A stretch of DNA of 64,000 nucleotides from Pseudobdellovibrionaceae bacterium (GTDB taxonomy: Bacteria; Bdellovibrionota; Bdellovibrionia; Bdellovibrionales; Bdellovibrionaceae), in assembly GCA_039810425.1 (NCBI GenBank), contig JBDHWW010000003.1, positions 64,001 to 128,000 of the forward strand, read 5' to 3'. This document shows, piece by piece, positions 3,026 through 8,690 of the stretch. Every line of letters starts with the position of its first letter. The stretch's first letter is position 1. Below the pieces are notes generated by a model. It saw only the letters and a program-made list of their open reading frames with translations. It had not been told where the DNA came from and ran no database searches. The translations under genes and the position numbers were made by a program.

Positions 3026-4123
3026 TTAATTCGCAAAAACATCTGCACAGCGGGCGTTGAATGGGTTTTGTATTAGTCCCTTCATAACCGCTTGCGCAAA
3101 CCGCGTTTCAATAAAGGTCGTTATCTTCGTGTTATTCAAGTATACGACAAGGCCGACGATACCAGACGTTGCCAAAGCTCCCCACGGGGACAGGCCATAC
3201 ACGCTCGGGCTAAAAAGCATGGCCGTTGCCGCAAAATAACCCAGAAGAATGGATCGTGTCTCCTGCACTCGGCGGAAAACCCATTTCGAAGCCGGCTGAA
3301 TGCGTTCGTCAATCGAAGCAATATTCTCGGACCAGGCAAAGGATGCCACGCTCGACACTAGGCTCATCATTATCGGCACAGTCAACAGATGCATGTCCAC
3401 TGTTCCATCAACGAGTCGATCGAAGGAGAGGAAAGGAACCCGCGATAAGTTAATTAAACTTGAGAGCGCAAAGCTCGAAGTAAACAGCATACTGACGTCT
3501 GCAAAAGACTTCGCTTTAAGTTGGTCTGTTTTATAAATAAATTTGCTAAAAAATGAATAGAAGGGTTTCGTCGCATGGGACCAGCTATCTTTGTTAAGGC
3601 CGAATGCAACTGCGGTCATTACGGTGAAAACTATATTAGCGGTTCTTTCGAAACTCGAAAGATGGCTCGCATGAATCCATACATAAGAATCGACAAGAGT
3701 ATTAAAGGTTACAATCACGAGACCCCATTTATCGGCTTTCGCCGAAGTGACAACCTTCGCAGGATAAGCTCTTAGCAGCGCCGAGAAGTTCTTTGCCTTA
3801 GATTCTTTTCCCGCACGCGGAAGCGGCATCAACGCCACGTTTTCTTTTTTCAACTGAGCCGTACCGACCAAAATGTCTTCTAGATCCGAAGACACGATGA
3901 CATTTTTATCAGTCTTCTCAACGTGTTTTTTAATTTGAGCAAGAACCTCGGCCTCAGAGGCCACTTCCGGCAGCTCGACTTGAATATTCGTCGCCGCACT
4001 ACCCGCCCCAACACTGAGCTGTACAGAGATGTCTTCACGAATAGGAATTCTCTGTTGAGCAAACAGAGTCTCGGCAGAAAAGAAAGCCAGCAGAATAAAA
4101 AGCGATGTGCGACGTACAACCAT
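3026..4123 (-). CDS. Hypothetical multi-pass membrane protein with N-terminal signal-like segment
   Basis: 365-aa ORF with hydrophobic N-terminus and several hydrophobic helices in the C-terminal two-thirds; 14 nt downstream of the preceding gene. Confidence 0.7.
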   Translation of the reverse strand: MVVRRTSLFILLAFFSAETLFAQQRIPIREDISVQLSVGAGSAATNIQVELPEVASEAEVLAQIKKHVEKTDKNVIVSSDLEDILVGTAQLKKENVALMPLPRAGKESKAKNFSALLRAYPAKVVTSAKADKWGLVIVTFNTLVDSYVWIHASHLSSFERTANIVFTVMTAVAFGLNKDSWSHATKPFYSFFSKFIYKTDQLKAKSFADVSMLFTSSFALSSLINLSRVPFLSFDRLVDGTVDMHLLTVPIMMSLVSSVASFAWSENIASIDERIQPASKWVFRRVQETRSILLGYFAATAMLFSPSVYGLSPWGALATSGIVGLVVYLNNTKITTFIETRFAQAVMKGLIQNPFNARCADVFAN

Positions 4124-4137
4124 TTTAAGCCACCTAT

Positions 4138-5163
4138 TTATCGAGTAGGACCGTATGGAACTTCAGCCTTGCAACCCATCACATTTTCTTTCAGCCAATC
4201 AACGACATTGGGGTTCGTGTCGTTCGAAGGCACATCGCTCCAAGTGAGCCTTAAGTAGCCGCTATAAATGCGCCCACTCATCAGTTTGAAAATGGCGTCA
4301 AGAGTGATTCGGTCTGTCTTAGCATCAGGAGTTTGCGAATTAAATATTCTCACATTACTCGGTGAAATTCTCCCGGTTGACGTTAGGACCAGGGCTCTTT
4401 GACCAAAGGGTCCTCGATAGTTTCCGATAGCCGCTGTTTCAGAGCTCGGTGGGACAAGAGCATCACTATTGCATCCCGAAATACTTAAGAAATTACCATA
4501 ATCATAAAAGAAGCCTTCTATATTGAGCTTGTCCTTAAGAACACGGCGTACTGCCAATTTGCATTGATCCCGGTCGCCATAGCCGCTAGGAAGTTGAACC
4601 AAAGCGCTCAGACTCGAAAAGTAGGGGCATTGCTCATTTTGGAAATAGTTGGAAATTTCCGAAGGAAATAACGGAGTATCCTTTACGAGGTCGAGGGTTT
4701 TAAAACCTTTTGGCAGCTGAATTTGAATGAGGACTGCATTACCCGGTCCCCCGCCAAAACTATATGTTTCCATTGGATTTTGCGCAGCATAAAAACCCGG
4801 ACCGTACATGTTATTCATCCCATAATTCGGCGTAGATGCAGGACTGCAATCGTCAGGGTTTAAACTTGAATTTTGCGTTGAACAGTAACTTTGAAAAAAG
4901 CGGGATCCTTGATTTCGAACGTAATTATAGCCAGCATAATCGTAAGCGGAAATAGGAGACTTCCAAAGAGCGTTGCGGTTAGTGGCATCGAACCAATGAA
5001 AAACCATGTAAGGCCTTTTCAGTTCATAAACATATTTCGAGAGGTATTGAACAACTTCAGCCTCACTCGCTACACGACCCTGAAATTGGTTTGTGCTATC
5101 AGTTCGCGCAAATGCCACCGAAAAATTCAGCAATAAGCTGGCAAAAAGGATAAGTTTCGTCAT
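4138..5163 (-). CDS. Secreted protein with ADP-ribosyltransferase-fold-like motifs (paralog A)
   Basis: Signal peptide ending in AFA; VFHW...MYGPGFYAAQNPMETYSFG...VLIQIQLPKG...EGFFY...RALVL; paralog of 5197-6294. Confidence 0.6.
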   Translation of the reverse strand: MTKLILFASLLLNFSVAFARTDSTNQFQGRVASEAEVVQYLSKYVYELKRPYMVFHWFDATNRNALWKSPISAYDYAGYNYVRNQGSRFFQSYCSTQNSSLNPDDCSPASTPNYGMNNMYGPGFYAAQNPMETYSFGGGPGNAVLIQIQLPKGFKTLDLVKDTPLFPSEISNYFQNEQCPYFSSLSALVQLPSGYGDRDQCKLAVRRVLKDKLNIEGFFYDYGNFLSISGCNSDALVPPSSETAAIGNYRGPFGQRALVLTSTGRISPSNVRIFNSQTPDAKTDRITLDAIFKLMSGRIYSGYLRLTWSDVPSNDTNPNVVDWLKENVMGCKAEVPYGPTR

Positions 5164-5196
5164 CTTCGTAAATTCCTCTTTCTTCCGTCATCCAAA

Positions 5197-6294
5197 CTAG
5201 GCGCCGCTGAGGTTATTATCGCTAGCGTCTTTTTTCTTGACGTCGTCTTGAGTATTGGAAACATCTGTCGTTGCAGGAATATAAGGAACATCGTCTTGGC
5301 AACCAACTAAATTGTCTTTCATCCACGTTGAAATGTTTCGATCAAGGTCGGCAGCCGTAATGTCTTTCCAAGATTGAAAAAGGCTTCCACTGTAAGCCGA
5401 ACGGAAGGCATTGAAAACACTCAGGATCAAAGCCCGCTCAGCTGTCGCATCCGTGGTTTGTTCGTTATAAACTTTCACGCTGTTCCGTGAAATCTTCGCA
5501 GGATTCGCGAGGATGAAAGCACGACCGTTGAATGGGCCTTGATAGTTTCCAATCGCAGCGGTCTCTACGCTGTTTGCAACCGGCTGCCTATTGCACTCTT
5601 GAAAGTCAATTGCTGAGTAACTATAGAAGAACCCATCCATTTTAAGCTGGTCTTTCAAAATACGACGAGCCGTCATCAAGCAGGAGTCCGAGACAATGTA
5701 ACTGTAATTAGTGTAACCAACTTGAAGCAAACCTGAGATATTTTGAACTGCCACAGAACAGCTAGCCTGAAGGAAGAAGTTTGAAATTTCTCGTGGAAAC
5801 AGTTGGTTATCTTTTGCAACGTCCATCACGCGGTAACCCCGTGGCAATTGAGTTTGCATAAGGACCCAATCGGAGCCGTAACCGCCGTAAGAGAAAGTCG
5901 CGACGGGGTCGATCGAGTTATAGAGAGCCGGGCCGTACATATTAAGTGCGCCATATTTTAAATCAGTCAAATCACCGCAGTCTTTTGGATTGGCGCTTGG
6001 GTTCCTGAATGAACAAAAGGATTGGTAATAGCGGTTGCCAAGGTTTTCAAGATGGTCGTAACCAGAGGGGCTGTTGGAAGCTAATGGACTTGTCCAAACA
6101 GCATTGCGGCCCCTACCATTGAACCAGTGGAAAACCATGTAGGGCTTTTTCAGCTCGTACATATATTTAGCTAAGTACTGAACCACTTCGTTCTCATTAG
6201 CCACTCGTCCTTGAATATTCGCCGAGGTTTGGGCAAGGCCTGTAGATAGGCTCAACACAAGGCCAGCTAAAGTGACAAATTTTGTAATTCTCAT
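5197..6294 (-). CDS. Secreted protein with ADP-ribosyltransferase-fold-like motifs (paralog B; start 6294 or 6306)
   Basis: Signal peptide ending in GLA; VFHW...MYGPALYNSIDPVATFSYG...VLMQTQLPRG...DGFFY...RAFILANP. Confidence 0.6.
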   Translation of the reverse strand: MRITKFVTLAGLVLSLSTGLAQTSANIQGRVANENEVVQYLAKYMYELKKPYMVFHWFNGRGRNAVWTSPLASNSPSGYDHLENLGNRYYQSFCSFRNPSANPKDCGDLTDLKYGALNMYGPALYNSIDPVATFSYGGYGSDWVLMQTQLPRGYRVMDVAKDNQLFPREISNFFLQASCSVAVQNISGLLQVGYTNYSYIVSDSCLMTARRILKDQLKMDGFFYSYSAIDFQECNRQPVANSVETAAIGNYQGPFNGRAFILANPAKISRNSVKVYNEQTTDATAERALILSVFNAFRSAYSGSLFQSWKDITAADLDRNISTWMKDNLVGCQDDVPYIPATTDVSNTQDDVKKKDASDNNLSGA

Positions 6295-6365
6295 GACTAT
6301 ATCCATCCTTTAAAGCCGTTTGTTCGATCTGGGATCTCCCGATTCTGTTTTGTAAAAAAGTAAAA

Positions 6366-6429: not shown

Positions 6430-8016
6430 ATGAAAACACAATTTTTAGTCCTTCTAATTCCGTTGTTGCTTACAACGTTGTCCCAGGCATCGGACCTGCC
6501 GGCGGCCCTTGTGCCACTTCAGGAGAAACTCTTTCAGACCTCTTATAAGAGCTTCGCCAAAGACTTTAGAACGGCCCATCCCGAGTATAAAATCCCAGCA
6601 GAGGCTAAGGCCCCCGTTTTCAACCCCAAGCTTTCCCGCAACGAGTGGTTGGATCTCTATATAAATACGCTGTTGGCGCAGATTTCTGTTCCGAAGGATC
6701 ACGTGGAGGCATTTAAGGGTTCCGCAAAAGAGATGTTTACGTCTTACTCTCGCAATGTCGGTTTTGCCCGGGTTCCCTTCTTATCCGTTGAGAGCGAACG
6801 TCTTGCGGCGGCAAAGGGCTCGGGTAAAGCAAAGGCCGTGAGGCCGACGACTCTGCCTGAGAGCTACCTTCCGAATCACACGATGGATATGGTTGGATAT
6901 GTAAATGAACGATTCTCGGCGATTCTACAGGACTTCGTGAAGTCGCAAAAGACCCCTCTCTATTTGCACGATAGCAATTGCGCTGATGCTTACGCATTTC
7001 AGCGGAGCGAAGGTTTTAATCAAGCGGTTCGTTTCATGGGCGCGCGAGATAATTCCAATAGCCAATACTTCTTTGCCGTGAATCCGAAAACGTCGGCGTA
7101 CCGCTTCGCGGTTTGTGATTTGCGTGGCCAAGACGACGTCACTCGGATCGTGGCATTGTTAGGCCCGATCTTTAACAAAGCCGGAGCCACTATGGTTTTG
7201 CATCAAGTAAAAGCTCCGATCTTGGCATTCAATAGCAAGGGTCGTGCCTTGAAAGTCCGCTCTCGTGAAGACCGCGTCGTACTTGGTTTTCAGAATACGA
7301 TTTGGTGGGAGTTCTACACCACAAATAAGGAAGATTGGCAACGTATTCCGCTGACGGACGAGGGAACCGATGTTTCACTCTTTGAAAATAAGCGCACAGG
7401 CGCGAATATCATTAGCGTAGAAAACGTCTATGGCGACGACATTGTTGAAGCTCTCGATATCCTTTACAAAAAGGGCTATCGTCGTTTCATCTATATGGGA
7501 AGTTGCGGGGGCTTGGATCCTGAATTCAAAATCGGTGATGTACTGATTCCAAATCGCTTCCTGGATAAAGACAACAAAATCATTGAGTTCAAAAACTCAG
7601 CCGGCCAGAAATACCTAGCTTTGCCAGGCGCTGGGAATATCATTCGTGACACAATTCAAGGCTGGGTGCCGACTTTGGCGGTGGAAACAAAAGATCACAT
7701 GATGGATATGCAAAAGAAAGCCCAAGCGATCGATATTGAAAGCCTTTATTTTGGAAAATTCTTTAATTCTCATGAAGCACTGGAGCAATCCTTGCTAGTC
7801 ACTGTCTCAGACACTCCCCTCGGTCATATGACTTACGAACAAGAAAATGTGACTCGTGGAATTCCAATGAAGAGCATCAAAAGACTTGTGCCACAGATTT
7901 TCGTAACAAAAGTGGAAAAAGAAGACGGGGGAAAACGAGCCGTCGCTTCGAGAAAAGCCACGACCGAGCCACCTGTTATTTGGCTGGGACCGGATCTCTA
8001 TGAGAAGTCCTGGTAA
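6430..8016 (+). CDS. Exported protein with C-terminal nucleoside phosphorylase/nucleosidase (PNP_UDP_1-like) domain
   Basis: Signal peptide MKTQFLVLLIPLLLTTLSQA; YMGSCGGLDPEFKIGDVLIP...AIDIES...VTVSD follows the NP-I family pattern. Confidence 0.65.
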   Translation: MKTQFLVLLIPLLLTTLSQASDLPAALVPLQEKLFQTSYKSFAKDFRTAHPEYKIPAEAKAPVFNPKLSRNEWLDLYINTLLAQISVPKDHVEAFKGSAKEMFTSYSRNVGFARVPFLSVESERLAAAKGSGKAKAVRPTTLPESYLPNHTMDMVGYVNERFSAILQDFVKSQKTPLYLHDSNCADAYAFQRSEGFNQAVRFMGARDNSNSQYFFAVNPKTSAYRFAVCDLRGQDDVTRIVALLGPIFNKAGATMVLHQVKAPILAFNSKGRALKVRSREDRVVLGFQNTIWWEFYTTNKEDWQRIPLTDEGTDVSLFENKRTGANIISVENVYGDDIVEALDILYKKGYRRFIYMGSCGGLDPEFKIGDVLIPNRFLDKDNKIIEFKNSAGQKYLALPGAGNIIRDTIQGWVPTLAVETKDHMMDMQKKAQAIDIESLYFGKFFNSHEALEQSLLVTVSDTPLGHMTYEQENVTRGIPMKSIKRLVPQIFVTKVEKEDGGKRAVASRKATTEPPVIWLGPDLYEKSW

Positions 8017-8039: not shown

Positions 8040-8690
8040 TTAAAAAGTCCCGACGACTTCTTTCAGCCGCTGGAACGTCACCACGTCATTCAAATCAGAT
8101 GAAAAGAAAAACTTTTTGAAACCGGGTGGCACCGGATACTTCCCGGTTTTTAAAACATCCAAGACATACATGCTGCCAAGCTCCTGACAAGCCAGTGATC
8201 CGGCAAGGGCGGGATCAGACAAGCAGTAAGTCGGCATTGAGCCGATACAAATCAGCGCATTGGCCATTTCTCGGTCCGTCTGACAGTAAGCTGGCTGAAC
8301 GCGGGCGCAAGCCAAATCATTGGCGAACTTGCGATCGGTCTGGCAATACGACGGCATGCTACCAGCGCAAGCCAATGAATTCGAGTGCTCTGGTTTTGTC
8401 TGACAGTATACTGGATGGGCGCCAATACATGCGCCGTTGTTCGCAAAAGATTCATTGTTTTGGCAGAAATCCGGTTTAACTCCAGCACAGGAAAGCAAAT
8501 CGGCGGTGCTGTTATCTGAGATGCAATAAGAAGGTCTCGCTCCAATACAAGACAGATTATCGCCGGCAGATTTATCGGTGATACAGAACGAAGGCGGAAT
8601 CGCTCCATGCACAGGGCGTGGGATCAAGACAGTGGCAAGAAATAATATCAGTCCAATTTCTACGAAGAACCACCAAGAATGCCGTTTCAT
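8040..8690 (-). CDS. Exported cysteine-rich tandem repeat protein
   Basis: GGAG RBS before ATG 8690, signal or anchor helix, then seven 20-aa repeats with two Cys each. Confidence 0.75.
   Translation of the reverse strand: MKRHSWWFFVEIGLILFLATVLIPRPVHGAIPPSFCITDKSAGDNLSCIGARPSYCISDNSTADLLSCAGVKPDFCQNNESFANNGACIGAHPVYCQTKPEHSNSLACAGSMPSYCQTDRKFANDLACARVQPAYCQTDREMANALICIGSMPTYCLSDPALAGSLACQELGSMYVLDVLKTGKYPVPPGFKKFFFSSDLNDVVTFQRLKEVVGTF
8175..8594 (-). repeat. Seven degenerate 60-bp (20-aa) coding repeats, consensus P-x-[YF]-C-x11-C-x-G-x-x
   Basis: PSFCITDKSAGDNLSCIGAR / PSYCISDNSTADLLSCAGVK / PDFCQNNESFANNGACIGAH / PVYCQTKPEHSNSLACAGSM / PSYCQTDRKFANDLACARVQ / PAYCQTDREMANALICIGSM / PTYCLSDPALAGSLACQELG. 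Confidence 0.9.

Follow-up and report, generated by a model that had tools for sequence, protein, structure and literature searches.

A tandem pair of predicted exported ADP-ribosyltransferase-fold proteins without the catalytic glutamate in a Pseudobdellovibrionaceae genome

Introduction

The 64,000-nucleotide stretch of contig JBDHWW010000003.1 analysed here (positions 64,001 to 128,000; hereafter the window) comes from a Pseudobdellovibrionaceae genome (G000; 3.54 Mb, 149 contigs) and contains two adjacent, related genes. Their products, P0001 and P0002 (Table 1), raise the question of whether a bacterial predator exports proteins that act on NAD+ and, if so, against whom. A preliminary description of the window had taken them for a divergent family with the fold of ADP-ribosyltransferases (ARTs) and motifs in the order known from the H-Y-E clade, exported and possibly directed at prey. 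We infer a predatory lifestyle for the host, because its taxonomic family includes genomes with proteins publicly named Bdellovibrio bacteriovorus and Pseudobdellovibrio.

Prey shutdown by Bdellovibrio-type predators is usually ascribed to hydrolases. An exported NAD+-using family, if confirmed, would extend the predator toolkit to covalent modification or cofactor depletion, and an exported arsenal of this kind would provide a concrete, testable mechanism for the silencing of invaded prey, with a member in B. bacteriovorus. In full-text searches of the open literature, the listings and the starts of abstracts pointed to no description of an ART or NAD+-enzyme family in such predators. The main text of a comparative genomics study of Bdellovibrionota (PMC11656739) makes no mention of such a family, and Bdellovibrio is not mentioned in the text examined of PMC3482391 and PMC8120803.

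Results and discussion

Fold and predicted active site

P0001 and P0002 share 43% identity across 345 columns (E 2e-106) and are the sole copies of their family in G000; a weak tblastn match on contig C2 (E 0.018) was discarded after follow-up searches showed no family member there. Both proteins contain, in the same order, the seven literal motifs given in the preliminary description. These motifs are features of a small subclade, each matching just 3-10 of the 142 members of our main alignment (A1), and the pattern shared more widely across the family, present in 112 of the 142, reads G-x-G-h-Y-x-[AS]-x-[DN]-P-x-x-[ST]-x-x-[YF]. An exhaustive homolog search was required to recover the family: it yielded 181 clusters (50% identity) at E <= 0.001, compared to only 2 proteins from a word-index search. 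A1 comprises P0001-P0003 and 139 further sequences among the 150 listed, 10, mostly short, having been dropped; a set of 95 domains was used for broader comparison. A distant group, represented by the B. bacteriovorus protein P0157, is homologous to the main family with an hhalign probability of 99.9%.

At cut-off, the family of P0001 and P0002 has no match in Pfam, NCBIfam, PHROGs or PADLOC, the sole ART-related Pfam row being PARP in 1 of the 95 members (E 0.019, below cut-off), and a single-sequence PDB search gave no relevant match. The ART fold is supported by structural matches from Foldseek and VIA and by HMMER alignment to PARP12 and PARP13, and the split beta-sheet core, which had been set as a check, is present in the predicted fold. 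The top Foldseek matches of P0001 are MbcT (E 8e-3) and NatT (E 5.6e-2), the top VIA match of P0157 is MbcT as well, and the best sequence-level match is PARP13. Matches in the ESM Atlas, all of them below 0.9, are leads only (exotoxin A 0.88, ART-PolyVal 0.87).

The strongest conservation falls on the predicted nicotinamide pocket, whose residues were assigned by alignment and the order of the strands. G121, G123, Y125, D129, P130, T/S133 and Y/F136 are each conserved in at least 133 of the 142 sequences of A1 (Y125 in 140, Y/F136 in 136), with P0001 itself, which has Asn at position 129, as an exception. The spacing of Y125, a hydroxyl residue at +8 and an aromatic residue at +11 is what we take to be the spacing in PARP1 and diphtheria toxin. 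The first-strand His, by contrast with its presumed role as an H-Y-E constant, did not hold up: position 56 is Asn in 69, His in 53 and Ser in 15 of the 142, and His in 60, Asn in 16, Arg in 10 and Ser in 7 of the broader 95, with at least 21 changes on a quick tree, although it is nearly always polar and is His in both window proteins. That the usual catalytic Glu is missing was borne out. In the column placed by HMMER alignment to the region-3 residue of PARP12/13, 133 of 142 and 75 of 95 members have Ala, and none of the 95 has Glu, Asp or Gln. The preceding strand likewise has conserved residues, Y220 and Y/W222, and 222 corresponds by motif to the RES Ser.

These residues bear on whether the proteins are enzymes at all. 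They could be pseudoenzymes, similar to PARP13 or RCD1, whose extracellular ligand would be a nucleotide or a surface partner. This alternative, which we regard as improbable, draws on the absence of a catalytic acid, on the frequent Asn or Ser in place of the first-strand His and on the weak expression of the model-organism member (see below); the best sequence match also speaks for it, as PARP13 is catalytically inactive, and so does the periplasm, which contains little NAD+. However, sequences with only 11-14% identity per column almost invariably keep the stacking Tyr, a hydroxyl residue at 133 and a second aromatic residue, as would be expected of an active NAD+ site, the small Ala, too, is under strong selection, and the recurrent linkage with Fic genes whose motifs are intact points to enzymes of conflict. 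Besides, loss of the Glu need not mean loss of activity, because MbcT carries Gly at region 3 and still works very efficiently as an NAD+ phosphorylase (PMC6436930) and acidic acceptors can stand in for Glu in some PARPs (PMC10789625); further non-canonical ART triads are tabulated in PMC8120803. We consider it probable that the family has an NAD+-cleaving activity of some kind. The mechanism of Glu-less ARTs is named as unresolved in PMC10789625, and the combination of an invariant nicotinamide pocket with a selected Ala would constitute a natural test of how such enzymes work.

Two variations around the last strand were observed. A few long members have Trp in place of Ala at the last-strand position, and the subclade nearest to the window pair has an inserted loop, E-T-x-x-I-G-x-Y-x-G-P-F, before that strand (P0001 residues 242-253, window 4405-4440). 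The Glu of this loop (ETAAIG) was considered as a family-wide substitute catalyst and rejected, since it is confined to the near subclade and absent from most members; within that subclade, it might reach the active site locally.

Table 1 Features of the ART locus in the window.
Feature	Position	Strand	Remarks
P0001	4138..5163	-	341 aa; predicted ART-fold protein with hydrophobic leader
P0002	5197..6294	-	365 aa; paralog of P0001; alternative ATG at 6306
P0001 His56	4996..4998	-	first-strand polar residue; same residue in P0002 at 6127-6129
P0001 residues 121-137	4753..4803	-	G-x-G-h-Tyr125...Thr133..Phe136-G; predicted nicotinamide-pocket motif, aligned with PARP13/PARP12
P0001 Ala257	4393..4395	-	inferred catalytic-Glu position, last core strand; P0002 Ala259 at 5518-5520
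Phosphorylase-like leader protein	6430..8016	+	nucleoside phosphorylase/AMP-nucleosidase-like C-terminal domain, unknown N-terminal ~280 aa; divergent to the ART pair
365-aa unknown protein	3026..4123	-	leader, moderately hydrophobic helices, C-terminal C-x-x-x-F; 14 bp downstream of the ART pair, co-oriented

Comparison with known ADP-ribosyltransferase systems

The preliminary interpretation stood in part: the ART fold is retained, but the best structural matches include RES-type NAD+ phosphorylases no less than H-Y-E toxins. According to the predicted structures and alignments, the family is part of the ART superfamily and lies outside its canonical H-Y-E, R-S-E and RES families; the variable 'His' and the Ala at the catalytic-Glu position set it apart from both canonical H-Y-E and RES members. 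Compared to H-Y-E or ARTD enzymes (diphtheria toxin, Pseudomonas exotoxin A and the PARPs including Glu-less PARP12 and PARP13), with which structural identity is about 10%, the family replaces the last-strand Glu by Ala and the first-strand H-G-[ST] by H, N, S or R followed by W or Y, has large helical inserts and lacks, in most members, a B/translocation domain, whereas the canonical Tyr on strand 2 and the second aromatic are both kept. It also differs from R-S-E (ARTC) enzymes, which are marked by Arg on strand 1, Ser-Thr-Ser on strand 2 and E-x-E: the family has Arg in 10 of 95 members only, Tyr on strand 2 and no Glu.

Polymorphic-toxin ARTs (Tox-ART-HYD1/HYD2/HYE1/PARP/RSE; PMC3482391) and Glu-less divergent ARTs (Arr, Tpt1/KptA, CC0527, AcrIF11) resemble the family in combining the ART fold with a non-canonical triad and with conflict-type evolution (arrays, fast divergence). 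None of the 95 members matched the Pfam families of either kind, and the family was seen with no Rhs, type VI or type VII secretion system carrier and with no immunity gene. Its own signature reads [YF]-[HNSR]-[WY] / GxGLYxAxDP / Y-x-[YW] / A-h-h-h.

RES enzymes (MbcT, NatT, ParT; PF08808) are the top Foldseek and near-top VIA matches of the family and share with it a small amino acid at region 3 (Gly152 in MbcT) and a strand after which come 'LD' and a helical insert. They lend weight to another reading, in which the proteins are secreted NAD+ glycohydrolases or phosphorylases that collapse the energy metabolism of prey and/or feed nicotinamide and ADP-ribose to the predator, with the adjacent phosphorylase-like protein as a salvage step. 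For this speak the rank of MbcT among the matches of both P0001 and P0157, its efficiency despite the Gly, the RES-like layout around strand 3 and the secreted phosphorylase-like genes that flank ART genes in the window and in L058, L059 and L093, with a more distant one two genes off in L044. We nevertheless regard it as unlikely. The RES profile (17 sequences) conserves R, Y, E, D and S. The family retains neither the Arg nor the Glu nor the Ser; it has mostly H/N on the first strand, with Y/F (at the Glu-helix position) and Y/W in the other two places. PF08808 matches 0 of 95 members, and hhalign of the family against RES gives a probability of only 1-3% (E 0.014, weak). Moreover, of the 401 genomes of the phylum, just 2 have the complete phosphorylase-like gene, both of them seeds and both with the gene beside ART arrays, and a small-molecule target gives less cause for five diverging copies, as found in L058. 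RES enzymes are also cytoplasmic, while the family is likely exported with disulfides, and no Xre antitoxin was seen beside ART genes in the neighbourhoods examined. G000 in addition contains an ordinary RES-domain gene (L125 1322-1744, contig C149), which is unrelated to the ART pair and was the only match when this genome was searched for RES domains.

Export, disulfides and proposed function

Export with disulfide-dependent folding, as first suggested for the pair, gained support across the family. A hydrophobic N-terminal leader, scored by a hydrophobicity heuristic only, is present in 120 of 135 full-length members versus 3 of 135 internal control windows. Six Cys are aligned between P0001 and P0002 (94, 106, 179, 201/205, 231/234, 331/332). 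Cys 94 and 106 occur together in 28 sequences, with neither in 113 and a single one in 1; for Cys 179 and 201, the corresponding numbers are 63, 27 and 5 in the set of 95, and Cys 231/331 are the sole strongly conserved pair in the distant group. Since the pairs co-occur and the Cys count is even (in 126 of 135 mature proteins), we infer three disulfides, 94-106, 179-201 and 231-331.

Our preferred, though tentative, reading is that the family consists of exported, disulfide-locked, Glu-less mono-ADP-ribosyltransferases directed at prey. The proteins would be exported by Sec, folded and disulfide-locked in the periplasm, which would keep the cytoplasmic NAD+ of the producer safe, and then released into prey. 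There, NAD+ would be bound by the first-strand polar residue together with Tyr125, Thr/Ser133 and Tyr/Phe136, and ADP-ribose would be passed to an acidic acceptor, either a Glu/Asp side chain or a phosphate; as the acceptor itself would be acidic, an enzyme Glu would not be needed. Paralog arrays with variable loops would widen the range of targets or prey. That there is no dedicated immunity gene, as noted before, agrees with neighbour clustering, in which no small gene recurs beside ART genes; we propose that export and periplasmic folding protect the producer instead.

The Bdellovibrio bacteriovorus relative

The expression of the distant relative in B. bacteriovorus gives this reading little support. 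P0157 (CAE80589.1, 303 aa) is likely Bd2806, because its length and the sizes of the adjacent genes fit. Bd2806 was called silent in both attack and growth phase by RNA sequencing, with 3.0 and 11.1 reads per kilobase per million (PMC3627812), and a proteome of 2,195 proteins (PMC12546842) does not have it among its Bd280x rows. It does figure in a 240-gene predatosome list, in which its values are borderline (1.33/1.23-fold, t-test 0.10; PMC2797640), and the member is not among the 140 followed-up transposon-sequencing genes listed by HD100 name. Thus, the prey-directed role is not supported in the form in which it had been put forward, and the low expression argues, weakly, against a core killing role for P0157 on E. 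coli; it has no direct bearing on the window pair. With a member in a genetically tractable strain, both the role in predation and the Glu-less mechanism are directly testable.

Silence on E. coli would also fit a different trigger, as expected if the proteins were active toxins against eukaryotic grazers (protists) or other environmental organisms, deployed alongside secreted Fic proteins. This has in its favour that PMC3482391 takes toxins without immunity genes as likely anti-eukaryote, that the neighbouring Fic proteins score best with models of XopAC/AnkX-type effectors (far below cut-off) and that the distribution is patchy and rich in paralogs. On the other hand, most members are without a receptor-binding or translocation domain, the members seen all belong to a phylum of bacterial predators, and the missing immunity genes are already explained by export and disulfide folding; we therefore attach a low probability to it.

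Distribution and history of the family

The A1 profile matched at least 46 of 301 genomes of the order and at least 64 of 401 genomes of the phylum, G000 included in both cases; these counts are lower bounds, as 4-6 candidates were scored per genome. Scanning every GTDB species genome with a sequence pattern gave 74 matches, of which 9 loci were confirmed, all titled as Bdellovibrionota lineages, and the other named members are from Bdellovibrio, Pseudobdellovibrio, Bacteriovoracia or Bdellovibrionota. Among viral contigs, 0 of 17 pattern matches were confirmed as relatives, and the plasmids searched contained none. These results suggest that the family is confined to the phylum Bdellovibrionota, which is the phylum covered by the profile searches. 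On a quick tree of the 95 domains, members from the window's own taxonomic family are scattered over several clades, and arrays of 2-5 ART genes recur among relatives.

One such array indicates how the pair may have arisen. The metagenome contig L058 has the flanking genes of the window at 86-87% identity and five ART copies. P0002 is about 75% identical to copy 1, and P0001 is 61% identical to copy 5, with its first 45 residues closest to copy 2; by sequence similarity, P0001 is likely a chimera of a copy-2 5' end and a copy-5 body, which suggests contraction of the array by recombination. The ART genes are under purifying selection, constrained but evolving faster than their flanks, with dN/dS of 0.18-0.24 versus 0.09-0.11 (one pair each, dS being near saturation).

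Some relatives deviate in architecture. One (L003 1450-2628, G023) is broken by an internal TAA into pieces of 211 and 155 aa and adjoins an intact Fic gene. Long members of 590-1130 aa are fusions of the ART domain with large regions of unknown nature, which could be delivery or targeting parts (L094 2833-8273, L095 2791-5733, L111 2407-4968; further long fused members are L099 4797-6707, L107 2426-5815, L108 3065-6085 and L112 3221-5956).

Neighbouring genes

The gene most often found next to ART genes encodes a Fic protein that has Cys residues, a leader and an intact HPFxDGNGRxSR motif (invariant or nearly so). A Fic profile matched 29 of 401 genomes of the phylum; 21 of these are among the 64 genomes that have an ART match, and the other 8 are among the 337 that have none. 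After 55 Fic rows had been merged to 50 loci and 3 fragment rows dropped from 106 ART rows, 20 of the 50 Fic loci lay within 6 kb (<=6 kb) of an ART match, in 17 genomes, of which 8 had supplied seeds and 9, from four families, had not; kinship among the genomes inflates any test of this linkage. The link is frequent but optional, because G000 has no such Fic gene and 80 of 103 ART matches are not near one. A wider picture, of an exported nucleotide-toxin arsenal, seems to us somewhat doubtful; in it, a clade of Glu-less ARTs with a structure intermediate between diphtheria-toxin-like and RES enzymes, encoded together with secreted Fic enzymes and a nucleoside phosphorylase, would ADP-ribosylate prey or drain its NAD+.

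The unnamed Fic family with leader and conserved Cys pairs is likely secreted and, independently of the ARTs, a candidate family of predator effectors; it was seen at L003 2625-3611, L010 2677-3822, L032 2533-3672, L047 505-1629, L056 4350-5468, L101 4103-5338 and other loci, with up to 4 matches per genome.

In the window, the ART pair is flanked on one side by what are presumably flagellar switch-type genes and on the other by suhB, SPOR and, we assume, helicase-type genes. The 365-aa unknown protein gene likely shares an operon with the pair, and its product has no match in Pfam, NCBIfam, PHROGs or the ESM Atlas. Its family occurs in 26 of the order's 301 genomes, but only 3 of 12 loci examined, all of them seeds, have it next to an ART gene, for which reason it was rejected as an obligatory partner or cognate immunity gene. 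A VASEAEV stretch common to this protein and P0001 was likewise rejected as a motif, as it is not conserved in the relatives of the neighbour. Further along, at window 8040-8690 (- strand), lies a gene for a leader protein with many short Cys repeats (C-x-G-x-x-P-x-x-C-like) and no family at cut-off. In one subclade, a gene for a lipoprotein-like protein of ~430 aa (TPR-like by eye; no Pfam or NCBIfam match for the one scanned) recurs next to ART or ART-Fic genes (L006 204-1487, L008 204-1535, L010 143-1495, L046 1735-3024, L084 7300-8580).
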